Source: Escherichia coli
GTDB taxonomy: Bacteria; Pseudomonadota; Gammaproteobacteria; Enterobacterales; Enterobacteriaceae
Strand: one strand, 5' to 3'
Length of the DNA stretch: 64,000 bases
Assembly (NCBI RefSeq): GCF_024502345.1
Contig: NZ_JALDNN010000001.1
Made by a program: the position numbers and the translations under genes. Shown piece by piece: positions 5,623 to 64,000 of this stretch. The notes under the pieces are model-generated. The model had not been told where the DNA came from. It made no database searches and was given only the letters and a program-made list of their open reading frames with translations. Every line of letters begins with the position of its first letter. Position 1 is the stretch's first letter.

Positions 5623-6612
5623 TTAGCCGCCAATGTACGATAAGTTTTGCGTAATACCGGTGTTGTTTTGATGCAGGAAATGGGTCTGTTTCTTCTCCCG
5701 CAGCGCCGCTGAAATACGCGCTTCCAGCGCCTGTTGCTGGGTATCGTCTTCCAGCAGATCGCGCAGGTTAACGCCGCCTTCACCAAACAGGCAGAGATGG
5801 AGTTTACCAATGGAGGAAACGCGCAGGCGGTTGCAAGTGGCGCAGAAGTCTTTTTCATACGGCATGATAAGGCCAATCTCTCCGGCGTAATCTGGATGGC
5901 AAAAGACTTGCGCGGGACCGTCGCTGCGTTGACGTAATTGGTGGATCCAGCCGCGACGCAGTAGCTCGTCACGCAGAACCTGACCAGAGATGTGATGCTT
6001 ACGGAAGAGCTCGCTGCCCTCGCCCGTTTCCATCAGTTCGATGAAACGCAGCTGGATAGGGCGATGCTGGATCCAGTTCAGAAAGGTGTCGAGCTGGTGA
6101 TGATTAACATCACGCATCAGCACGGTATTGACTTTGACCTTCTCAAAACCGGCCTCAAATGCAGCATCAATCCCCGCCATGACCTGGTTGAATTTATCCT
6201 GCCCGGTAATAGCGTGAAACTGGCGGGCGTCCAGACTGTCGACACTGACGTTAATGCCAGTAAGTCCCGCATCGCGCCAGTTCGCCACATCGCGTTCCAG
6301 ACGGTAACCATTGGTGGTGACCGCAATCTGGCGGATAGCGTCGTTTTCCCGCACAGCGGCGATGATATCGGTAAAGTCGCGGCGTAAAGACGGCTCACCG
6401 CCTGTCAGGCGCACTTTTTCGGTGCCCAGACTGGCGAAGGCGCGCGTAACCCGGCGAATTTCATCGACGGTAAGAAAGCCTTTATTGGTGACGCCGCTCG
6501 GTTTGTAGCCATCCGGCAGGCAGTAGGTGCAACGAAAGTTACACACATCGGTAATCGACAGGCGCAAGTAGTAAAACTTACGCGCAAATGCATCAGTCAG
6601 TTGTGAAGCCAT
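5623..6612 (-). CDS. moaA: GTP 3',8-cyclase MoaA (radical SAM)
   Basis: CNFRCTYC radical-SAM cysteine motif; start set at MASQLTDAF (329 aa) rather than upstream alternative start. Confidence 0.95.
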
Positions 6613-6760
6613 GTACACCTTTCCAGATACGGGAGGCGAAGTCATTTCTTCCTTCGCCCTGGTGGCAATCTTTACGAGCATTGTCACGGCCAAAGCACCG
6701 TATCAGTTGACCCAGGTGCAGAGGCTAGAGTGTTTAGTGGTTATGCCGATACTAGCGTGT
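6613..6760 (-). promoter_or_regulatory. moaA 5' leader; expected location of the molybdenum-cofactor (Moco) riboswitch
   Basis: Long structured leader directly upstream of moaA ending in ..ggaaaggtgtacATG; Moco RNA is known in E. coli moaA leader; exact boundaries not determined. Confidence 0.55.
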
Positions 6761-6948
6761 AAATGAGATTTTTACCATCCACACTTTCGCTATGTAATCA
6801 TGTATATAGCGTCATGATCGTGCTATTTCGCTACAGAATAAGGGAAAATGGCGGTTTTACTTTGATATACATCATCAGGGAGGCATAGCGTGCATCGTCC
6901 TTTAGAGGTAGAAGAAAATAGTTTGTATCCTCAATATTGGCAGGTTAA

Positions 6949-51914: not shown

Positions 51915-52251
51915 CATGACTCCTTGCTCATCGCATGAAGACTCCGAGAGTGAACCCCGTTAGAAAGGGTCACACGCATGCCCCAATACAAAATTATTTG
52001 CTCGCCTCTATCGTTGCCATTTCATCAAAAGAGGAAAAGACAATGATAAAAAAGTTACAAATATGTTAATGAATAAACCAAATTGATCCCGTAATTATAT
52101 TACGCCGCAAAATCCTTACAATAAACAGGTTTTTATTGAGCAAATTTGCATTTTTCGACAGTGATCAATTTATAGCGAAATTGTCACGATCTCACCAATT
52201 TGATCTACGACAATTTATCGTGTTTTGCAGATTTTTTTCAAGAATTAAAAA

Positions 52252-52265
52252 TTGATTTATATCAA
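52252..52265. promoter_or_regulatory. FNR-type box in the cydA upstream region
   Basis: ttgatttatatcaa = TTGAT-N4-ATCAA about 340 bp upstream of cydA. Confidence 0.55.
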
Positions 52266-52719
52266 AACCAACCAAATATGTTAATTATGTATAAACCATA
52301 GATCATTGGTGATTTTATTGTTAATTTATTGTGAAATATTTATGCAACACAATTATTACAATGAAAAGGTATAGATAAAAAACCAGTGTTTTATTTAACA
52401 GAACCGCCCAATCAACTTTTTATAATACCAATTGATTAGAGTAGCCAATTTGTTGCTATTTTACATAACATATTTTTATCAAAGTTAATTGATTGTTGCC
52501 TTTATGAGCACCGACCGTAAGCCCGTTATGTTATTGTTTCATTAGTAATAATCACTTAAATGTATCGATGAAACAGGTATGACTTACCGGGAGTGATTGT
52601 TTCTGAGTGAACAGAGGCCACTTTCGCCTGATAAATGAAAAATGAGCGATTTTTGCAAGTTAGTTTTTCTATAGCCGAGTACGCTCAGCGCCTCGCTTGA
52701 TTACAATGAGGTTGCTGCT

Positions 52720-53664
52720 ATGAGTCCTGATAATATCGGTTCGGCTGTCAATCGCTTCTCAGGTTGGCCATCTAATGATCCTCTAAAAACAGATGAAGAA
52801 TCAATGAAATCACCCGTGACTGTGCAAGTAATAAAGATGATTGCCGCCATCCTTGACCCACATCGGATAGTCGTTGGAATTGATACACTTTATACAACGC
52901 AGCGCGAAACATTTACCTCAGAGAGTCAACAGCTCATTGAATCAGCATTGCAAACACTTCATGTGATGAATTTAAATAATCTGGAAACAAATCGCGATGA
53001 AGAAGGTCACTATCTGGCTTTTGAATATAACGTTGACACCTCTGACAGAATAACCGTTTCTGCTTATAATGAAAAAAAGCCTGGCTGCTATGGCCAATGT
53101 CTTTTAATACAGGATGACGAAACAGACTTATTTAACCTGATAAAAATTAAAATTTTCGAAGCCAGGCATAATTATGTCGCTCAATTGATGAGCGATCCGG
53201 AATTTATGTTCAAATTCAGTTATAGCGCTCAACAAAATAGATTAGAACCTCATCTTCTGGTTCCCGCTTATTTCCCTCTAAAAACAAACGAACCGGTTAC
53301 GCAAGAGGATGTACTGTTACTTTATCGTTTCTTTAAAATGAATGATGATTTTAATAAATTAACATCAGAGGAATACATGAGTATCATGACTCCTCTGATG
53401 AAGTGTGAGCGTAGCGTCCACGACAACAACAGGTATGTGACGGGCAAAGATACCCATCTTCTGGACTATCCTCCTTCTGGTAACCAGATACATTTCCATA
53501 TTTTTCCTGACGAATCAGCAACACTAGTCCTTTATTTTTCAAACAATGACCTTGAATGTTTCGTCTTTGAAAGAGATATTCCTAGCCAGTATCGCTTTTT
53601 CAAAATGTTTACCAATCTGGCACTGGTTATAGATCAGTTAACCGAAGCCAATAAAATACTTTAA
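52720..53664 (+). CDS. Hypothetical protein (314 aa), AT-rich accessory gene, no recognised domain
   Basis: Intact ORF with SD (gagg) 9 nt upstream; visibly AT-rich codon usage; no TM segment, signal peptide or P-loop; Ser/Asn/Pro-rich N-terminus. Confidence 0.6.
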   Translation: MSPDNIGSAVNRFSGWPSNDPLKTDEESMKSPVTVQVIKMIAAILDPHRIVVGIDTLYTTQRETFTSESQQLIESALQTLHVMNLNNLETNRDEEGHYLAFEYNVDTSDRITVSAYNEKKPGCYGQCLLIQDDETDLFNLIKIKIFEARHNYVAQLMSDPEFMFKFSYSAQQNRLEPHLLVPAYFPLKTNEPVTQEDVLLLYRFFKMNDDFNKLTSEEYMSIMTPLMKCERSVHDNNRYVTGKDTHLLDYPPSGNQIHFHIFPDESATLVLYFSNNDLECFVFERDIPSQYRFFKMFTNLALVIDQLTEANKIL

Positions 53665-53744
53665 TTTTCTATATATCCCTATGGCAAATATTGCTAAACA
53701 ATGCCTGGGGATTAATTTTTATTACTCACGGAAAGATTTAAATA

Positions 53745-54167
53745 ATGATACCATCTCAGATCTCTTTCAATACCCTTCCAGTCAATGCAACATACGCTTC
53801 AGAGACAACAGTTGACACACAAAAATTCTCTGACATCCTCTACTCAGCGGGGTGTTCCCTAAAGGATATGGCTTATCTGAGCAGATGTCTGGCATCAATA
53901 CACCCGACTCTCGCCAAAAACATTTATGAAACAGAAAATCTCAGCGATCAAAAATTACTGCATATTGATTGCCGTAGTACAAATGACATCAAGATAAATA
54001 TCTTTTTTGGTCAGCAACGAGAAGGATTAATTGAAATTAGTTCTGACACAGTTATTTTTTCGATACTGTCTTCATTGATTGACTCCGCCATTTCTAAATT
54101 TCAACATCAAAACCCCGTTAACGGTTCAGTTAATCCTGAACTATTGTATAAGGATTATACTGATTAA
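53745..54167 (+). CDS. Hypothetical protein (140 aa), AT-rich accessory gene, no recognised domain
   Basis: Intact ORF 80 bp downstream of the 314 aa ORF, same strand, SD-like ggaaag; Ser/Thr/Asn-rich N-terminus. Confidence 0.55.
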   Translation: MIPSQISFNTLPVNATYASETTVDTQKFSDILYSAGCSLKDMAYLSRCLASIHPTLAKNIYETENLSDQKLLHIDCRSTNDIKINIFFGQQREGLIEISSDTVIFSILSSLIDSAISKFQHQNPVNGSVNPELLYKDYTD

Positions 54168-54714
54168 ACCCACCCAGTCGCGAAAAATGGCCTGCGTTAT
54201 TGCCAGACGTAATAAAACCGTTGATTAACGTTACTCATACTGGTAGCACCTTCATGTACCTCTCTTTTTTACGAAAAATCAAAAGAGCTAACTAAGGTCA
54301 TAATTCGCATGAATCATTAACCATTTGTTATTTTCAACATTATTTTTACATTAAGCAGAAATGAATTGCAGTGAAATTCGACTTAAATCTTATGAAATGC
54401 ATTTACTCATGGCTAAAACCACGTCACAAAAATGCAAATTAGAAGTAGATCACAATTATCTCAATACATTAAATCAAGTTAATTTTAAAAATTTAACATT
54501 CATGTCATTAGTTGACATAACACACTGAATTAACATGGAAATTTAAAAACACACTTTAAACAATCATTTCCCGAAAGACATTTTGAAAATAGATCAATTG
54601 CAACATTACGGTCAGATAAAGACACTCCTGTGATATTAAACCTGTGCCGTTATGAACGGCCATAAATACGACGTGTGTAACTTATTTTACTCTCTGTCTT
54701 ACAAAGGATTACCC

Positions 54715-55164
54715 ATGAAGAAAGCAACACTTGTGATTGGCGTTATTGGCGCGGACTGCCATGCAGTAGGCAATAAAGTTCTGGACCGCGTTTTTAGCAA
54801 CCACGACTTCAGAGTCATTAATCTGGGCGTAATGGTCAGCCAGGACGAATATATTGATGCTGCCATCGAAACTGGCGCTGACGCGATTATCGTCTCCTCT
54901 ATCTATGGGCATGGCGATATCGACTGTCTGGGCATGCGCGAACGCTGCATCGAGCGTGGACTGGGTGACATCCTCCTCTATGTGGGCGGTAACCTGGTGG
55001 TCGGAAAACATGACTTCGCTGACGTGGAAACCAAGTTCAAAGAGATGGGATTTGATCGCGTCTTTGCCCCAAGTCATGACTTAGAAGATGTTTGTCAGCT
55101 GATGGCCCACGATATCAATCAACGTCATGACGTTGATACTCGTATTCTTGAAGAGGCTATCTGA
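54715..55164 (+). CDS. glmS: Glutamate mutase sigma subunit (B12-binding)
   Basis: Cobalamin-binding DxHxxG motif ([10 protein letters not shown]); close match to remembered Clostridium GlmS/MutS; start at MKKATLVIG. Not the GlcN-6-P synthase glmS. Confidence 0.88.
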
Positions 55165-56552
55165 TGCAAATCGTCTCTGTCGATATTGGATCGACGTGGA
55201 CCAAAGCTGCCCTCTTCACCCGGGAGGGGGACGCGTTAACGTTGGTTAACCACGTACTGACCCCAACCACCACCCATCATCTGGCGAAGGGGTTTTTCTC
55301 CAGCCTGAACCAGGTGTTAAACGTAGATAATGCCCTCCCCCTGTTAAACAGCGGTGAGGTTGCATTGAAGTATTCCTCCTCTGCCAAAGGTGGGCTGGCG
55401 GTTGCCGCAATGGGATTGGTGCCTTCTATCACCCTGGAAACCGCGAAAGTAACCGCTCACTCTGCGGGGGCTAAAATTGCGCAATATTACGCCTACAAGC
55501 TGAACCGCCGTGATATCCAGGCACTGGAAGAAACGCAGCCCGATATTCTCTTGTTCACCGGCGGCACCGACGGCGGAGAAGAAAGCTACGGACTGAATAA
55601 CGCCCGTGTGCTGGCAGAATCCAAACTCGACTGCGCCATTATTTATGCCGGAAACCGGGATATTCAGGACGAGGTGCAGGAGATCCTCGGGCATAAAGAC
55701 CTGACCATCGTCGACAATGTTCTGCCCGATCTTGACCATCCGAACCCTTTAGCCGCACGCCAGGCTATTTGCGACATATTCCTTAAACGCATCGTTAAAG
55801 GGAAAGGGCTGGATGTCATTGTTGATAAAACAGGCGAAGAACCAATGCCGACACCATGGACGGTCTTTGAACTGGTCAAGGCAATCAGTAACGTCGATCA
55901 CAGCTGGAAAGAGTTCATGCTGATCGACATGGGCGGCGCAACCACCGATGTTTATTCCGCCGGTGCCAACACGCTCTCGCCCGACACCGTTTTACACGGC
56001 GTACCGGAACCCTTCGTAAAACGGACGGTGGAAGGCGATCTGGGAATGCGCGTCTCGGCAGTGGTGGTTGGTGAAAGTGCGAAAGAGTTAGTCAATGTGA
56101 ATTTTGCTCAGCAACCCGCACAGCTGGACGCTTTTTATCATTACCTCCGTCATCTAGTCGCTCATCCCGACTACTTACCCGCAAATGCAGAAGAGAAATA
56201 TTTCGATACCGTCCTGGCCGGACTGTGTGTGGGTTATGCCACCGAAAGACATGCGGGCACCAAAAAAGAGGTCTGCACCTGCGTCGGCAATGTCGATTTA
56301 CAGATGGGACGTGACCTGACAACCGTGCGTAAAGTCGTCGGATCCGGCGGATGGCTCTCGCGTGCCAGTCAGTTCGATATGCATCACTGGTTGAAATACC
56401 GCGAGTTAAACGACGACGGTAAACGCATTCTCTTACCGACCGAATTTGAATATTACCGCGATTCCCGGGGGCTATTACCACTGCTGGCAAACGTCGCCAG
56501 AGTCGATCCGCTGGCCGCCGCGCGCACCAGTATTCAATGCTTAACCCTATAA
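55164..56552 (+). CDS. glmL: Glutamate mutase-associated protein GlmL/MutL (actin-like ATPase fold)
   Basis: 462 aa; N-terminal VDIGSTWTKAALF phosphate-1 motif; sits between S and E subunit genes; ATGA overlap with glmS. Confidence 0.8.
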   Translation: MQIVSVDIGSTWTKAALFTREGDALTLVNHVLTPTTTHHLAKGFFSSLNQVLNVDNALPLLNSGEVALKYSSSAKGGLAVAAMGLVPSITLETAKVTAHSAGAKIAQYYAYKLNRRDIQALEETQPDILLFTGGTDGGEESYGLNNARVLAESKLDCAIIYAGNRDIQDEVQEILGHKDLTIVDNVLPDLDHPNPLAARQAICDIFLKRIVKGKGLDVIVDKTGEEPMPTPWTVFELVKAISNVDHSWKEFMLIDMGGATTDVYSAGANTLSPDTVLHGVPEPFVKRTVEGDLGMRVSAVVVGESAKELVNVNFAQQPAQLDAFYHYLRHLVAHPDYLPANAEEKYFDTVLAGLCVGYATERHAGTKKEVCTCVGNVDLQMGRDLTTVRKVVGSGGWLSRASQFDMHHWLKYRELNDDGKRILLPTEFEYYRDSRGLLPLLANVARVDPLAAARTSIQCLTL

Positions 56553-56570
56553 CAATTAAGGCTGCAATCA

Positions 56571-58016
56571 ATGGAACTTCGAAATAAGAAATTAACCCAT
56601 GACGAATTCATGACCGAGCGGCAACAGGTACTGAAAACCTGGGAAACCGGCAAGGATGTTGAAAACTTTGAAGATGGCGTTAAATACCAACAAAACATTC
56701 CTGAGCATAAACGCTTCTCTCATGCCCTGCTGAAAGCAGACAAGGAAGGTAAAACCCTTAGCCAACCGCGCGCAGGTGTGGCGCTGATGGACGAACACAT
56801 CGAACTGCTGAAAACACTACAAGAAGAGTGCGATCTGCTGCCAAGCACCATCGATGCATATACCCGTCTGAATCGGTACGAAGAAGCGGCTGTAGGGATT
56901 AAAAAATCCATCGAAGCCGGAACCTCTAAACTGAACGGTTTACCGGTAGTTAACCATGGTGTCGCAGCTTGCCGTCGCCTCACCGAAACCCTGCAAAAAC
57001 CGCTACAGATCCGCCACGGCACGCCAGATGCGCGTCTGCTGGCTGAAATCTCAATGGCCAGCGGCTTTACCAGTTATGAAGGCGGTGGCATTTCCTACAA
57101 CATTCCGTATGCCAAACGTGTAACGCTGGAAAAATCGATCCGCGACTGGCAGTACTGCGACCGTTTAATGGGGATGTACGAAGAACACGGGATCCGCATC
57201 AACCGCGAACCGTTTGGCCCACTAACGGGTACGCTGATCCCGCCGTTTATCTCGCACTCTATCGCGATAATCGAAGGCTTGCTGGCGCTGGAACAGGGTG
57301 TGAAATCTATCACCGTTGGTTATGGCCAGGTCGGCAGCCTGACGCAGGATGTTGCGGCGATCCAGTCTCTGCGTGAACTTGCACACGAATACTTTCAGAG
57401 CTATGGCTATACCGACTATGAATTAAGTACCGTGTTTCACCAGTGGATGGGCGGCTTTCCGGAAGACGAATCGAAAGCGTTCGCTATTATCTCCTGGGGC
57501 GCAGCCGTCGCGGGGATGTCTGGTGCCACCAAACTCATCACCAAAAGTCCGCACGAAGCCTGGGGCATTCCGACTGCCGCTGCCAACATTCAGGGGCTGA
57601 AAGCCTCCCGCCAGATGCTCAACATGGTCAATGAGCAGAAATTCCCGCCGTGCCCTGCGGTTGAACTGGAAATTGAACTGATTAAGAGCGAGGTTCGCGC
57701 AGTACTGAATAAAGTGTTCGAACTGGGTAATGGTGATATTGCGCGCGGAACGGTGCTGGCATTTGAAGCGGGCGTACTGGATGTGCCGTTTGCGCCAGCC
57801 GCCTGCAACGCGGGCAAAATTCTTCCGGTCCGTGACAACACCGGCGCGATACGCGTACTGGAAGCCGGAGCCGTTCCATTGCCAAAAGATATTCTCGACC
57901 TCCACCACGATTACGTTGCGGAACGCGCACGCTGTGAAGGACGCCAACCGACATTCCAGATGGTTGTAGATGACATCAATGCTGTATCCCACAGTAAATT
58001 AATAGGAAGACCATAA
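56571..58016 (+). CDS. glmE: Glutamate mutase epsilon (catalytic) subunit
   Basis: 481 aa; extensive identity to remembered Clostridium GlmE (LPSTIDAYTR, HGTPD, VFHQWMGGFP, KTPHEA). Confidence 0.9.
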   Translation: MELRNKKLTHDEFMTERQQVLKTWETGKDVENFEDGVKYQQNIPEHKRFSHALLKADKEGKTLSQPRAGVALMDEHIELLKTLQEECDLLPSTIDAYTRLNRYEEAAVGIKKSIEAGTSKLNGLPVVNHGVAACRRLTETLQKPLQIRHGTPDARLLAEISMASGFTSYEGGGISYNIPYAKRVTLEKSIRDWQYCDRLMGMYEEHGIRINREPFGPLTGTLIPPFISHSIAIIEGLLALEQGVKSITVGYGQVGSLTQDVAAIQSLRELAHEYFQSYGYTDYELSTVFHQWMGGFPEDESKAFAIISWGAAVAGMSGATKLITKSPHEAWGIPTAAANIQGLKASRQMLNMVNEQKFPPCPAVELEIELIKSEVRAVLNKVFELGNGDIARGTVLAFEAGVLDVPFAPAACNAGKILPVRDNTGAIRVLEAGAVPLPKDILDLHHDYVAERARCEGRQPTFQMVVDDINAVSHSKLIGRP

Positions 58017-59257
58017 TGAAAATAAAACAGGCCCTGTTCACCGCTGGCTATTCCTCATTCTATTTCGATGACCAGCAGGCGATAAAAAACGGAGCGGGTC
58101 ATGACGGCTTTTTTTATACCGGGGAGCCGGTAACACAGGGGTTTAACGCCGTTCGTCAGGCCGGGGAGTGCGTATCGGTACAGTTGATTCTGGAAAACGG
58201 CGCGGTCGCCGTAGGTGACTGTACTGCCGTACAGTATTCCGGGGCAGGCGGTCGCGATCCACTGTTCCTCGCAGAGCACTTTATTCCGTTCCTCAACGAC
58301 CATATCAAGCCATTACTGGTAGGCCGCGATGTGGATGCTTTCCTGCCGAATGCCCGTTTCTTCGACAAATTGCGTATTGACGGCAACTTGCTGCATACCG
58401 CCGTGCGCTACGGATTATCACAGGCGCTGCTTGATGCTACCGCGCTGGCAACCGGCCGTCTGAAAACTGAAGTGGTCTGTGATGAATGGCAGTTGCCACG
58501 CGTGGCGGAATCCATTCCATTATTTGGTCAGAGCGGCGACGATCGATATATCGCCGTCGATAAGATGATCCTTAAAGGCATCGACGTGCTGCCCCATGCG
58601 CTGATTAATAACGTCGAAGAGAAGCTGGGCTTTAAAGGTGAAAAACTGCGCGAATATGTCCACTGGCTGTCGGATCGCATTCTGAGCAAGCGCACCAGCG
58701 CACGCTACCACCCAACCCTGCACATCGATGTATACGGCACTATCGGTCTGATCTTCGATATGGATCCGCTTCGCTGTGCGCAATACATCGCCAGCCTGGA
58801 AAAAGAAGCGCAAGGCCTGCCGCTCTACATCGAAGGGCCGGTCGATGCCGGTAACAAGCCCGATCAAATTCGCCTGCTGACCGCGATTACCAAAGAGCTG
58901 ACGCGCCTCGGTTCCGGCGTGAAAATTGTGGCCGATGAATGGTGTAACACCTACCAGGATATTGTTGATTTCACTGATGCTGCCAGTTGTCACATGGTGC
59001 AAATCAAAACCCCGGATCTGGGCAGTATTCACAACATCGTCGATGCGGTTCTTTACTGCAACAGCCACAGCATGGAAGCGTACCAGGGCGGCACCTGCAA
59101 TGAAACTGATGTCAGTGCCCGCACCTGTGTCCACGTCGCCCTTGCCGCTCGCCCTATGCGTATGCTGGTAAAACCAGGGATGGGCTTTGACGAAGGCCTC
59201 GATATCGTCTTCAACGAAATGAATCGTACTATCGCGCTGTTGCAGGCTAAGGATTAA
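58016..59257 (+). CDS. mal: 3-methylaspartate ammonia-lyase
   Basis: 413 aa; enolase-superfamily; strong identity to remembered Clostridium MAL (GAGHDGF, VQYSGAGGRDPLFLA, HMVQIKTPDLG); ATGA overlap with glmE. Confidence 0.92.
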   Translation: MKIKQALFTAGYSSFYFDDQQAIKNGAGHDGFFYTGEPVTQGFNAVRQAGECVSVQLILENGAVAVGDCTAVQYSGAGGRDPLFLAEHFIPFLNDHIKPLLVGRDVDAFLPNARFFDKLRIDGNLLHTAVRYGLSQALLDATALATGRLKTEVVCDEWQLPRVAESIPLFGQSGDDRYIAVDKMILKGIDVLPHALINNVEEKLGFKGEKLREYVHWLSDRILSKRTSARYHPTLHIDVYGTIGLIFDMDPLRCAQYIASLEKEAQGLPLYIEGPVDAGNKPDQIRLLTAITKELTRLGSGVKIVADEWCNTYQDIVDFTDAASCHMVQIKTPDLGSIHNIVDAVLYCNSHSMEAYQGGTCNETDVSARTCVHVALAARPMRMLVKPGMGFDEGLDIVFNEMNRTIALLQAKD

Positions 59258-59260
59258 CAA

Positions 59261-60631
59261 ATGGCTCGTTCTTTTAAAGTCTTATCGCCAACGGCAATCC
59301 TCGGGTATGGATTCCCGGAAGAGAGCTTCCGCAAAGCGATGGCAGAATCGCCCGATCTGATCGCCGTTGATGCAGGCTCTTCCGATCCAGGCCCCCACTA
59401 CCTCGGGGCAGGCAAACCGTTTACCGATCGCGCAGGGGTCAAGCGCGATCTGCGCTATATGATCACCGCAGGCGTGCAAAATAATATACCGGTGGTGATC
59501 GGAACGGCTGGCGGTTCTGGTGCCGCACCACACCTGGAGTGGTGCCGAGAAATAATTCATGAGATTGCCCGGGAAGAGCACCTCTCGTTCTCGATGGCGC
59601 TGATCCCGGCAGACGTTGACAAAGCCATCGTCCACCAGGCGCTGGATAACGGCAAAATCACGGCGCTGGAGTTTGTCCCGCCGTTAACCCACGACGCGAT
59701 TGACGAAAGTACGTATATCGTCGCGCAAATGGGCATCGAACCCTTCCAGCGTGCGCTAAAAGAAGGCGCGCAAGTGGTGCTGGGTGGGCGCGCTTACGAC
59801 CCGGCCTGCTTTGCTGCGCTACCGATCATGCAAGGCTTTGATGAAGGTCTGGCGCTGCATTGTGGGAAAATCCTTGAGTGCGCAGCAATCGCCGCAACGC
59901 CCGGCTCAGGCTCTGACTGTGCGATGGGCATCATTGATGACAACGGCTTTACGCTGAAGACATTTAATCCGAAGCGTAAATTTACCGAAACGTCAGCAGC
60001 TGCACACACACTGTATGAGAAATCCGATCCTTACTTCCTGCCAGGACCTGGCGGCGTGTTGAATCTGAAAGGCTGCACATTTAAAGCGGTCAATAACGGC
60101 GAAGTGTACGTCAGCGGTTCTAAGCATGAAGAAACGCCGTATGCCCTGAAACTGGAAGGTGCACGACGGGTGGGCTTCCGCTGTCTGACCATCGCCGGAA
60201 CGCGCGACCCGATTATGATCGCCGGGATCGATAAAATCATCGATGAAGTCAAAACCAGCGTTTCGCGTAACCTGTCGCTCGACGATGACAGCATTCGCAT
60301 CAATTTCCACCTGTACGGCAAAAACGGGGTGATGGGAGACCATGAACCGATGCAAACTGCCGGGCATGAGCTGGGGATTGTCCTTGATGTAGTTGCACCG
60401 ACCCAGGAAATTGCCAACAGCGTTTGCTCGCTGGTGCGCTCTACCATGCTGCACTACGGCTATGAAAACCGCATCGCTACCGCAGGCAATCTGGCGTTCC
60501 CGTTCTCCCCTTCTGATATCCAGGGCGGGCCGGTATACGAATTTTCCATATATCACCTGATTGAAGCCAACGACGCTCTGCGTTTTGATTTCCATATTGA
60601 ACAGGTGACGCCAGAAGGAGTTCAGGCATGA
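59261..60631 (+). CDS. DUF1446 (AtuA N-terminal domain-like) protein of unknown function
   Basis: 456 aa ORF 4 nt after mal; family assignment from memory, not searched. Confidence 0.7.
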   Translation: MARSFKVLSPTAILGYGFPEESFRKAMAESPDLIAVDAGSSDPGPHYLGAGKPFTDRAGVKRDLRYMITAGVQNNIPVVIGTAGGSGAAPHLEWCREIIHEIAREEHLSFSMALIPADVDKAIVHQALDNGKITALEFVPPLTHDAIDESTYIVAQMGIEPFQRALKEGAQVVLGGRAYDPACFAALPIMQGFDEGLALHCGKILECAAIAATPGSGSDCAMGIIDDNGFTLKTFNPKRKFTETSAAAHTLYEKSDPYFLPGPGGVLNLKGCTFKAVNNGEVYVSGSKHEETPYALKLEGARRVGFRCLTIAGTRDPIMIAGIDKIIDEVKTSVSRNLSLDDDSIRINFHLYGKNGVMGDHEPMQTAGHELGIVLDVVAPTQEIANSVCSLVRSTMLHYGYENRIATAGNLAFPFSPSDIQGGPVYEFSIYHLIEANDALRFDFHIEQVTPEGVQA

Positions 60632-60945
60632 AACAGTCAATTGTCTCACTGGCGCAAGTCATTCGTTCGAAAAATGCCGGACCTTACGAACTGGTTTTAG
60701 ATATTTTATTTAAAACGAAAGAAAACTATGAGCGAGTTAAATCATCAGGGCAATTAACCCCAGAACTGATTGCGCGCTTATATCATGTTGAACCTGACTT
60801 TATTCATCGTATTGTCTGGTTTGATCCTTCTAACGCAGTAAAAATCGTCATGCCACGAGATATTATCTCCGGGAATGTAGGTGACAATGATGTCTATGGT
60901 GCACAGCAACATGCACCTTTATTAAATATGAGTTTCGATTTGTAA
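60628..60945 (+). CDS. DUF4387 (AtuA C-terminal domain-like) small protein
   Basis: 105 aa ORF overlapping preceding ORF by 4 nt (ATGA); family assignment from memory. Confidence 0.65.
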   Translation: MKQSIVSLAQVIRSKNAGPYELVLDILFKTKENYERVKSSGQLTPELIARLYHVEPDFIHRIVWFDPSNAVKIVMPRDIISGNVGDNDVYGAQQHAPLLNMSFDL

Positions 60946-61028
60946 AAATCCGAATACTTTTAGCCAACTGACATCCCGTCACTTATTACAGTTCAACACT
61001 TCAGCTATTTGTAAGGTTGTAATAGCAG

Positions 61029-61060
61029 GTAGATGCCTGAATCTCTATTCAGGCATCTAC
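61029..61060 (+). terminator. Inverted repeat / possible attenuator between DUF4387 gene and transporter gene
   Basis: gtagatgcctgaatctctattcaggcatctac perfect 14 bp stem; no clean U-tract. Confidence 0.4.
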
Positions 61061-61084
61061 TTCTCCTGATTCTGATTTATCGCC

Positions 61085-61378
61085 GTGCACCTGATGGAGG
61101 AAAAAATGAAGAAAATAAGTTTAACCACGATGATTCTTTTGGCGCTGGTACTTGGAATGATTATCGGCGTAGTGCTCAATAACACTGTTTCACCGGAAAC
61201 AGCAAAACTCTATGCGCAAGAAATATCGATATTCACGACGATTTTCTTACGACTGATAAAAATGATTATCGCTCCGTTAGTGGTCTCTACCCTGGTGGTA
61301 GGTATTGCTAAAATGGGAGATGCCAAAGCCCTTGGTCGTATTTTTTCTAAAACACTCTTTTTATTTATTTGCGCCTCA
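61085..61378 (+). pseudogene. 5' fragment (98 codons) of a DAACS-family (GltP/DctA-like) dicarboxylate/amino acid:cation symporter gene, truncated by IS1
   Basis: [30 protein letters not shown] matches the GltP N-terminal signature; reading frame runs into IS1 and stops after 8 IS1-encoded codons. Confidence 0.85.
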
Positions 61379-61433
61379 GGTGATGCTGCCAACTTACTGA
61401 TTTAGTGTATGATGGTGTTTTTGAGGTGCTCCA

Positions 61434-61709
61434 GTGGCTTCTGTTTCTATCAGCTGTCCCTCCTGTTCAGCTACTGACGGGGTGGTGCGTAACGGCAAAA
61501 GCACCGCCGGACATCAGCGCTATCTCTGCTCTCACTGCCGTAAAACATGGCAACTGCAGTTCACTTACACCGCTTCTCAACCCGGTACGCACCAGAAAAT
61601 CATTGATATGGCCATGAATGGCGTTGGATGCCGGGCAACCGCCCGCATTATGGGCGTTGGCCTCAACACGATTTTCCGCCATTTAAAAAACTCAGGCCGC
61701 AGTCGGTAA
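61434..61709 (+). CDS. insA: IS1 protein InsA
   Basis: 91 aa; zinc-finger CPSC..CSHC; matches remembered InsA. Confidence 0.95.
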
Positions 61710-62131
61710 CCTCGCGCATACAGCCGGGCAGTGACGTCATCGTCTGCGCGGAAATGGACGAACAGTGGGGATACGTCGGGGCTAAATCGCGCCAGCGCTG
61801 GCTGTTTTACGCGTATGACAGGCTCCGGAAGACGGTTGTTGCGCACGTATTCGGTGAACGCACTATGGCGACGCTGGGGCGTCTTATGAGCCTGCTGTCA
61901 CCCTTTGACGTGGTGATATGGATGACGGATGGCTGGCCGCTGTATGAATCCCGCCTGAAGGGAAAGCTGCACGTAATCAGCAAGCGATATACGCAGCGAA
62001 TTGAGCGGCATAACCTGAATCTGAGGCAGCACCTGGCACGGCTGGGACGGAAGTCGCTGTCGTTCTCAAAATCGGTGGAGCTGCATGACAAAGTCATCGG
62101 GCATTATCTGAACATAAAACACTATCAATAA
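61628..62131 (+). CDS. insB: IS1 transposase InsB (expressed as InsAB' by -1 frameshift)
   Basis: 167 aa ORF in -1 frame relative to insA. Confidence 0.93.
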
Positions 62132-62146
62132 GTTGGAGTCATTACC

Positions 62147-62555
62147 AATCGCCGTTATTAGCTAAAGAATGAATATTAACAATAATATCGGGATGTAACT
62201 TTGTGAATTCATGTAAATTTGGGATTAACCAGTGGGTACTAAAAGTAGGATTAACGGCAAGTTCAATAACCTGAACCGTAGGCTGCCAGGTCATAATGGT
62301 ATTGGTATCGCGTTCCAGCTTATTTAATGTTTCTTTTACTATCCCCAGGTAATACTTCCCTGCATCATTAAGAAAAATGCGTTTTTTAGAGTGTGAAAAT
62401 AACGGAGTACGTAAAAATTCCTCCAGCGCACTTACTTGTCTGAATACTGCACTTTGGGTTAACGCTAACTCCTCTGCCGCTCTGGTATAACTTTCATGAC
62501 GTGCGACGACCTCAAAAGTCACCAGCAGTTCCGTTTTAGGTATTTTCCCTCGCAT
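62147..62555 (-). pseudogene. LysR-family regulator, 3'-truncated by IS1 (only about 135 N-terminal codons remain)
   Basis: LysR HTH (TFEVVARHESYTRAAEELALTQSAVFRQVSALE); last codon and stop are supplied by the IS1 end. Confidence 0.85.
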
Positions 62556-63118
62556 AATGCCGTCCCTTAAAAATAGTTTAAACCATCAAAAATACATTAC
62601 TTATTACGAAGTAATGGTAACAAAGCAGCAATAAATAATTTATAAGAATCATGATTGACATTTATAAACCAGTAAGGCTGGCGTGACAAATATCTTAATC
62701 AGATAATAATAATCCGAAAAGCACAGCGCCTTTCGAATTATCCGGAATCACATTAAGTGAAAATTATTAAATTGATATCATTTATCATATCTGTGGATAT
62801 TATGATAAACAATCAACAAAGATTTTATTTTTGATTTATAGCATATCCATCTAAGAATTTTTGCGATGCTGCAATATCCGGGGTAAAGACCCGATCCTGG
62901 CTGACAAATGGCACGACTTGACGAAAAGCGGTGAACATCGCTTTTGTTGATTTACTTAACGCTACGGTCAAACGCTGGGAAGCCAGTGCATCAGGTAACG
63001 ATTCGAAATTCGCCGTCGTTCTTATTCGTGGCTTGCGGTCGGTCGCGGCAATCCACAGTGGCTGTGGTCATGCAGTCAAGCCTGCAGTCAGATTTCGACC
63101 GTGGTTAACCGTTTAAGG

Positions 63119-63220
63119 TATAAAAAAGGCCATCATACGATGGCCAACCATGTCGAAACCGACAGCCCTTCGCCATTCCTGTAGAGGGAAGCGGCGAGGG
63201 CTATTTCTTATTACAGATAT
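63119..63220 (-). ncRNA. sdhX: sucD 3'UTR with terminator; expected location of 3'UTR-derived sRNA SdhX
   Basis: Immediately after sucD stop; ends in hairpin ggccatcgtatgatggcc + T6; SdhX is reported to derive from the sdh-suc operon 3' end. Confidence 0.55.
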
Positions 63221-64000
63221 TTATTTCAGAACAGTTTTCAGTGCTTCACCGATATCCGCCAGGCTGCGAACGGTTTTCACGCCTGCGGCTTCCAGAGCAG
63301 CGAATTTCTCATCCGCAGTCCCTTTCCCACCGGCAATGATGGCACCCGCGTGGCCCATACGTTTGCCTTTCGGCGCAGTCACACCAGCGATGTAACCCAC
63401 AACTGGCTTGGTAACGTGCTCTTTGATGTACGCAGCTGCTTCTTCTTCAGCGCTACCGCCGATCTCACCGATCATCACGATCGCTTCGGTCTGCGGATCT
63501 TTTTCGAACATTTCGAGAATGTCGATAAAGTTAGAGCCAGGGATCGGGTCACCGCCGATACCGACACAGGTCGACTGACCGAAACCGTAATCCGTGGTCT
63601 GTTTAACCGCTTCATAGGTCAGTGTACCGGAACGGGAAACGATACCCACTTTACCCGGTTTGTGAATGTGACCCGGCTGGATACCGATTTTGCATTCACC
63701 CGGAGTGATAACGCCCGGGCAGTTCGGGCCGATCATACGAACGCCGGCTTCGTCCAGTTTCACTTTCACAGTCAGCATATCCAGCGTCGGGATGCCTTCA
63801 GTGATGGTGATAATCAGTTTGATGCCTGCATCAATAGCTTCCAGAATGGAGTCTTTGCAGAACGGTGCTGGTACGTAGATAACAGAAGCGGTAGCGCCAG
63901 TAGCAGCAACAGCTTCACGCACGGTGTTGAACACCGGCAGGCCGAGGTGGGTAGTACCGCCTTTACCTGGGGTTACGCCGCCAACCATTTTAGTGCCGTA
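63221..64000 (-). CDS. sucD: Succinyl-CoA synthetase alpha subunit, 5'-partial (start beyond window end)
   Basis: Frame open to window edge; matches remembered SucD through C-terminal ..ALKTVLK. Confidence 0.95.

Follow-up and report, generated by a model that had tools for sequence, protein, structure and literature searches.

The DNA analysed here (referred to as the window) is a 64-kb stretch of the Escherichia coli chromosome that extends from the uvrB-bio-gal-tol-cyd region to sucD. Between cydAB and sucABCD it carries an accessory island, the glm-mal-fumD (methylaspartate pathway) island, with an IS1 allele in its distal half. The intact locus of E. coli O157:H7 EDL933, whose coordinates (L001) were used as reference, begins with two hypothetical genes followed by glmS, glmL, glmE, the methylaspartate ammonia-lyase gene, an AtuA-family gene and a DUF4387 gene; the remaining genes are those for a symporter, a class I fumarate hydratase and cobO, and then a convergent lysR gene beside sucD. 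A figure legend in Kronen & Berg 2015 (PMC4682846) gives the corresponding order as GltP, FumD, CobA, LTTR.

Judged by their reading frames, the six genes that precede the symporter stub in the window (54715 to 60945, all on the + strand) are apparently intact. The glmS frame (54715-55164) ends as in EDL933 and contains a 149-aa annotated CDS. The frames of glmL (55164-56552, 462 aa), glmE (56571-58016, 481 aa), the methylaspartate ammonia-lyase gene (58016-59257, 413 aa), the AtuA-family gene (59261-60631, 456 aa) and the DUF4387 gene (60628-60945, 105 aa) all match their EDL933 counterparts in length. Nucleotide identity to EDL933 across positions 52001-61378 is 98.9%, and the Pfam families B12-binding, MutL, Met_asp_mut_E and MAAL match the genes on identical contigs. 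The left end of the island (52000-54700) is very AT-rich, with 27-39% GC, and contains two hypothetical genes (52720-53664 and 53745-54167) which EDL933 and other strains also have. The pair formed by the AtuA-family and DUF4387 genes (59261-60945) is conserved immediately 3' of the methylaspartate ammonia-lyase gene. NCBIfam gave no match for either member of this pair; Kronen & Berg 2015 (PMC4682846) described its function as unknown and remarked that it is often mis-annotated. The pair could account for a pathway step to which no gene is assigned. A scan of positions 52000-64000 against Rfam returned no family at or above the gathering score.

Downstream of the DUF4387 gene lies the 5' stub of a gene for a GltP/DctA-type dicarboxylate/amino acid:cation symporter (61106..61378, + strand). 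It retains 91 of 426 codons, the full-length gene in EDL933 measuring 1,281 nt, and its breakpoint falls within codons 89-91. Residues 2-87 of the stub match positions 4-88 of the NCBIfam GltP profile NF008440. The open reading frame continues through eight IS1-encoded codons (GDAANLLI) and then meets a stop at 61403-61405. On the other side of IS1 lies the 5' stub of a gene for a LysR-type regulator (62147..62555, - strand), which comprises 136 codons plus 1 nt of the 301 codons (906 nt) found in EDL933; the break is at nt 401-409 of the gene. The stub retains the helix-turn-helix (HTH) domain and the beginning of the substrate-binding domain. Its residues 3-132 match an NCBIfam GcvA-like subfamily, and Pfam HTH_1 matches the identical stub product on other contigs. 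The corresponding open reading frame (62142-62555) ends with a tryptophan codon and a stop within the right inverted repeat (IRR) of IS1.

The element between the two stubs is an intact, IS1B-like IS1 of 768 bp (61379-62146, + strand). Its terminal repeats, GGTGATGCTGCCAACTTACTGAT at the left end (IRL, 61379-61401) and, as the reverse complement, GGTAATGACTCCAACTTATTGAT at the right end (IRR, 62124-62146), are imperfect 23-bp sequences that match at 18 positions. The insA frame (61434-61709) encodes 91 aa and the insB' frame (61628-62131) 167 aa; the A6C frameshift motif is found at 61685-61691, that is, at IS1 position 307. Both frames match the IS1 family transposase profile NF033558 of NCBIfam (90 and 143.8 bits, respectively) and jointly span profile positions 1-199. 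Length, terminal repeats, the insA/insB' arrangement with its A6C motif and transposase homology all place the element in the IS1 family. It differs by a single nucleotide (99.87% identity) from a copy annotated as IS1B in the RefSeq genome of strain 14EC033. No second copy of IS1 is present within the 64-kb window.

The 9-mer flanking IS1 on the left, TGCGCCTCA (61370-61378), corresponds to EDL933 L001 9421-9429, and the one on the right, AATCGCCGT (62147-62155), to L001 13340-13348. The two sequences agree at one position out of nine, and no repeat of 6 nt or longer is common to the two sides within 25 bp of the IS1 ends. Thus, there is no target-site duplication (TSD). The absence of a TSD is meaningful here, since three simple IS1 insertions in the same locus each have a TSD of 8 or 9 bp: in strain MEW the element lies upstream of lysR (9-bp TSD), in ETEC4077 it lies in the DUF4387 gene (8 bp) and in E200086 in fumD (9 bp). 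In all three strains, the flanks overlap on the reference by an amount equal to the TSD. Duplication and contiguous flanks, the two marks of a simple insertion, are therefore found in MEW, ETEC4077 and E200086 and are both missing for the IS1 of the window. The original prediction described an intact 768-bp IS1 at 61379-62146 whose 9-bp flanks differ, so that it could not be a simple insertion; both statements hold, with the coordinates exact and both ends and reading frames of the element recovered. It also proposed that 98 codons of the symporter gene and about 135 of lysR are kept. The truncation at the IS1 ends is correct in each case, while the counts need adjusting: 91 codons remain when the symporter is read from the RefSeq ATG at 61106 (98 is the count from a GTG at 61085), and 136 codons plus 1 nt remain of lysR.

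When the window was aligned with the EDL933 locus by BLAST, the alignments stopped precisely at the IS1 boundaries, with the left flank ending at 61378 (L001 9429) and the right flank resuming at 62147 (L001 13340). Since both flanks map to EDL933 colinearly and with the same orientation, the loss amounts to exactly 3,910 bp. This segment has no match anywhere in the 64-kb window. It comprises the final 1,008 nt of the symporter gene, the entire 1,653-nt class I fumarate hydratase/mesaconase gene fumD (L001 10545-12197), the entire 603-nt cobO gene for cob(I)alamin adenosyltransferase, and the final 497 nt of lysR. In EDL933, the fumarase matches NCBIfam NF011921 with 1,287 bits and the cobO product matches TIGR00708; this fumarase is FumD, described as a mesaconase/fumarase by Kronen & Berg 2015 (PMC4682846). 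The island of the window thus has glmS, glmL, glmE and the methylaspartate ammonia-lyase gene at full length and lacks the clustered fumD: it is a degraded member of the glm-mal-fumD cluster. Comparison with intact loci, suggested earlier as a way to rebuild the lost DNA, has in this manner yielded a segment of defined length with four genes affected. It bears out the view that the two convergent genes have both lost their 3' portions, EDL933 having them at 1,281 and 906 nt, and also the guess that FumD might lie inside the lost segment, which contains the fumarase gene from end to end. The proposal that mesaconase and transport functions might have been removed was right for fumD and for the 3' end of the symporter gene, and had overlooked the loss of cobO. 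As to annotation, both stubs should be treated as pseudogenes, and the locus should not be described as a complete methylaspartate pathway.

The distribution of the intact and deleted states was examined in 5,426 complete RefSeq genomes of E. coli. The 3.9-kb segment was found in 1,127 of them, at least 80% of it being kept in 1,122; the left flank is present in 1,123 of the 5,426 genomes and the right flank in 1,125. These figures exclude the case in which symporter and lysR genes would be naturally short and adjacent, which had been named beforehand as one that would speak against a deletion. Neither junction of the window occurs in the 5,426 complete genomes, as searched with 300-bp queries spanning each junction; the only match covering the queries in full is 14EC033, and there the match consists of two separate pieces. 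Likewise, the two junctions had no match in the GTDB species-representative genomes. Across window positions 1-61378, the best 25-kb matches to complete genomes show normal gene order at only 98.3-98.8% identity, indicating that this set contains no close finished relative of the lineage.

Other carriers of the allele were found by exact lookup of the junction-specific fusion peptides, those in which a stub reading frame continues into IS1. The lysR fusion peptide occurs on 18 contigs and the symporter fusion peptide on 14, in ENA and Logan assemblies derived mainly from human-gut metagenomes and in one NCBI draft genome (GCA_050022275.1). Both junctions are present in samples ERZ27268145 and ERZ27268317. 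The matches listed represent about 14 distinct samples, with 99.4-100% identity to the window; among these matches, every contig breaks off inside IS1, as is typical of short-read assemblies at repeats. Since both junctions recur in other assemblies, the allele is that of a lineage in circulation, and an assembly artefact is excluded for either junction. Given that the other contigs all end inside IS1, it is the window assembly only that displays a single IS1 joining the two flanks. One contig (L017; ENA ERZ27268317 k141_21029), corresponding to window positions 54177-61517, has the same left IS1 junction with 45 mismatches over 7.3 kb; one of these is only 72 bp from the junction, and roughly half lie close together upstream of glmS (54218-54545). 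The contig represents either a diverged or recombinant haplotype bearing this allele or a chimera created in metagenome assembly. In the literature searched, no paper links insertion sequences to the glm-mal-fumD cluster. The deletion allele is thus absent from the searched literature and from complete RefSeq genomes, and constitutes a new instance of a known phenomenon.

Several other alleles of the locus are disrupted in the same part of the island. Strain 14EC033 (NZ_CP024147.1; L003 8507-9845) resembles the window in having just one IS1B, likewise oriented and lacking a TSD, at a deletion that removes the 3' end of the symporter gene, fumD, cobO and the 3' end of lysR. Its endpoints, however, differ from those of the window on both sides (L001 9627 and 13649, for a loss of 4,021 bp, L001 9628-13648), and its flanking haplotype is 98.7% identical. 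Each of the two alleles keeps DNA that is missing from the other. A shared origin was therefore rejected: neither allele can be derived from the other, and the deletion in 14EC033 is an independent event. In 23CRST031 (NZ_AP045800.1; L022 7976-10800), as in the window, an IS-bounded deletion ends in lysR and leaves a 5' stub beside sucD; unlike in the window, the element at the breakpoint is IS903B, directly beside a lysR stub of 600 nt, and nothing of the island is left between cydA and lysR. This strain has an additional, frameshifted IS1A between lysR and sucD. In two further contigs, L023 (JGI 3300055680, positions 6392-6612) and L024 (SRR413694), the right end of IS1 abuts lysR at L001 13358, 18 bp from the window breakpoint and in the same orientation, and the IS1 fragment is 100% identical to that of the window. 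Both contigs end inside IS1, so that insertion and deletion are indistinguishable there. Finally, a point frameshift or nonsense change splits lysR into frames of 162 and 135 aa in a metagenome contig (L025, Logan ERR14980059, positions 6001-6907) whose locus is otherwise intact, cobO, fumD and the symporter gene included. Altogether, the distal part of the island shows recurrent but rare decay across alleles.

Two additional variants were observed in the course of this survey. A frameshifted symporter allele (P0017, P0018 and P0023), in which the tail YLFAPHCCQLP follows residue 82-85, arises in a T-rich run just to the left of the breakpoint (equivalent to window positions ~61350-61370). P0018 is found on 51 contigs, the longest of 4.0 Mb, and NCBI names the protein from E. 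coli DEC4A. This allele may be a genuine pseudogene, or it may stem from a homopolymer error in sequencing. In E200086 (NZ_CM128605.1; L005 14465-15862), lysR and sucD are separated by an RtcB-family gene, which is absent from both the window and EDL933.

That the locus carries an IS1-associated deletion is, in our judgement, almost certain. As for the route, an adjacent deletion promoted by IS1 is probably the one that was taken. We infer the following order of events and transposition steps. The first step would have been a simple insertion of IS1 at either breakpoint, in symporter codons 89-91 or at lysR nt 401-409. Intramolecular replicative transposition would then have joined the free end of the element to the other breakpoint (the 'adjacent deletion'); the intervening DNA would have been excised together with a second IS1 copy and lost, leaving a single IS1 between two unrelated 9-mers. 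IS1 prefers AT-rich DNA as target. Local GC content is 31% at the left breakpoint and 34% at the right one, as against 50% in the deleted segment, values which fit this preference; both breakpoints being AT-rich, either could be the primary insertion site. What favours an adjacent deletion is parsimony, as it takes two events instead of three in a locus where IS1 insertions are rare (about 6 in 1,127 genomes).

The three-event scheme, which we regard as a possible but distinctly less probable origin, holds that IS1 inserted twice and independently, into the symporter gene and into lysR, the two copies having like orientation and a 9-bp TSD each; RecA recombination between them would then have deleted the interval along with one IS1. 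The product would be the one observed, in which the left 9-mer is a TSD remnant of one copy and the right 9-mer a TSD remnant of its partner. Published work acknowledges such a route: Ngan et al. 2024 (PMC11708052) state that absence of a TSD classically denotes either an adjacent deletion or recombination between IS copies. Moreover, IS1 strikes this locus repeatedly, five of the six copies seen have the same orientation, and many E. coli genomes hold 10-40 or more copies of the element. Against this scheme, all three events would have to take place within 3.9 kb, and no genome with a single or double insertion was found among the 5,426 complete genomes and the JGI metagenomes. Nor is the IS1 of the window a mosaic, being of plain IS1B type, although near-identical parent copies would leave no trace of recombination.

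Adjacent deletion and two-copy recombination give the same sequence, hence only precursor genomes can discriminate between them. A simple-insertion precursor at either breakpoint was found in none of the 5,426 complete genomes. Reciprocal junctions, peculiar to a simple insertion, would consist of IRR followed by TGCGCCTCA and TTGCTGTCAATTGCC on the symporter side, and of CCCGATTAAGAA followed by AATCGCCGT and IRL on the lysR side. JGI metagenome contigs were scanned with the patterns IRR, 7-14 nt, symporter continuation, and lysR continuation, 7-14 nt, IRL; both scans yielded 0 matches. The missing precursor weighs little as evidence, since the lineage lacks a close complete relative (98.3-98.8% best identity). 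It speaks in favour of a third scheme, in which an IS1 from elsewhere inserted while the 3.9 kb were lost, with no IS1 previously resident at either breakpoint. A one-step movement of this type, accompanying a rearrangement and leaving no TSD, is proposed in PMC11708052 for IS5 and IS481. We consider it very unlikely in the present case: every deletion-associated IS movement detected in populations of the long-term evolution experiment, in each case one of IS150, could be classed as an adjacent deletion (PMC11708052), and IS1 is not known to move in the one-step manner.

Still less credible is an assembly artefact, in which two real IS1 copies flanking the segment would have been collapsed by the assembler and the 3.9 kb dropped. 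The idea draws on the independent contigs, all of which end inside IS1 so that none confirms linkage through a single element. The window, however, is contiguous for 64 kb through IS1, each junction is exactly reproduced in many samples, and the finished genome of 14EC033 contains an analogous deletion with a single IS1. A simple insertion between naturally short neighbouring genes, with a TSD eroded by mutation, is refuted by the 1/9 flank match and the 3,910-bp separation of the flanks in the intact locus, by the full-length genes of 426 and 301 codons, and by the ~1,122 complete genomes that keep the segment.

The deletion leaves a locus that still encodes glutamate mutase, its partner GlmL, methylaspartate ammonia-lyase and the AtuA-family and DUF4387 proteins. 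Conversion of glutamate to mesaconate would thus be possible in principle, provided that the glm and mal genes are expressed. The lineage lacks a dedicated mesaconase, adenosyltransferase, transporter and regulator and would presumably rely on FumA/FumB, BtuR and housekeeping glutamate transporters instead. E. coli possesses several glutamate transporters as well as a housekeeping BtuR. In hydrating mesaconate, FumA reaches 4% and FumB 19% of the catalytic efficiency that each has with fumarate (Kronen & Berg 2015, PMC4682846); the same study detected neither pathway expression nor citramalate-cleaving activity in the laboratory. With promiscuous FumA/FumB and these housekeeping functions in place, the loss may be phenotypically mild, which is consistent with persistence of the allele in many gut samples. 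As the allele demonstrates, the island, which leads from glutamate through mesaconate to citramalate, can lose the genes for mesaconase, adenosyltransferase, transporter and regulator in a lineage circulating in human guts. These losses fit a dispensable or partly redundant module, and the allele offers a potential natural knockout for the contributions of FumD, CobO and the LysR regulator.

We also considered whether the distal half of the island was lost under selection as opposed to neutral decay. At least five independent disruptions are on record: those of the window, 14EC033 (IS1), 23CRST031 (IS903B), the L023 lineage and the point-split lysR of ERR14980059. Every one of the five affects lysR, and the three that are deletions remove fumD, cobO and the symporter gene as well; glm and mal remain intact in the window and in 14EC033, whereas 23CRST031 has lost the whole island. 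If selection were at work, inactivation of LysR or a cut of the pathway at mesaconate could favour gut commensal lineages, the possible gains being mesaconate as an excreted end product or relief from regulation. We find this doubtful, since disruption events are few among thousands of genomes and selection need not be invoked.

The finding is an ordinary IS1-associated deletion in an already described accessory cluster. IS1-promoted adjacent deletions were classically described beside IS1 in the gal region of E. coli. The allele of the window has the features of these deletions, that is, a single intact IS, absence of a TSD, loss of the interval beside the element, and one or both flanks new; it differs from them in that the event is deduced from a natural allele and was not observed as it occurred. 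With respect to the 'glutamate fermentation' cluster reported for O157:H7 and other Enterobacteriaceae by Kronen & Berg 2015 (PMC4682846), it is the same island, with the same gene order and at the same site by sucD; what the window has lost from it is fumD and cobO/cobA, together with three quarters of the gene for the GltP-like transporter and that half of the LTTR gene which encodes effector binding.
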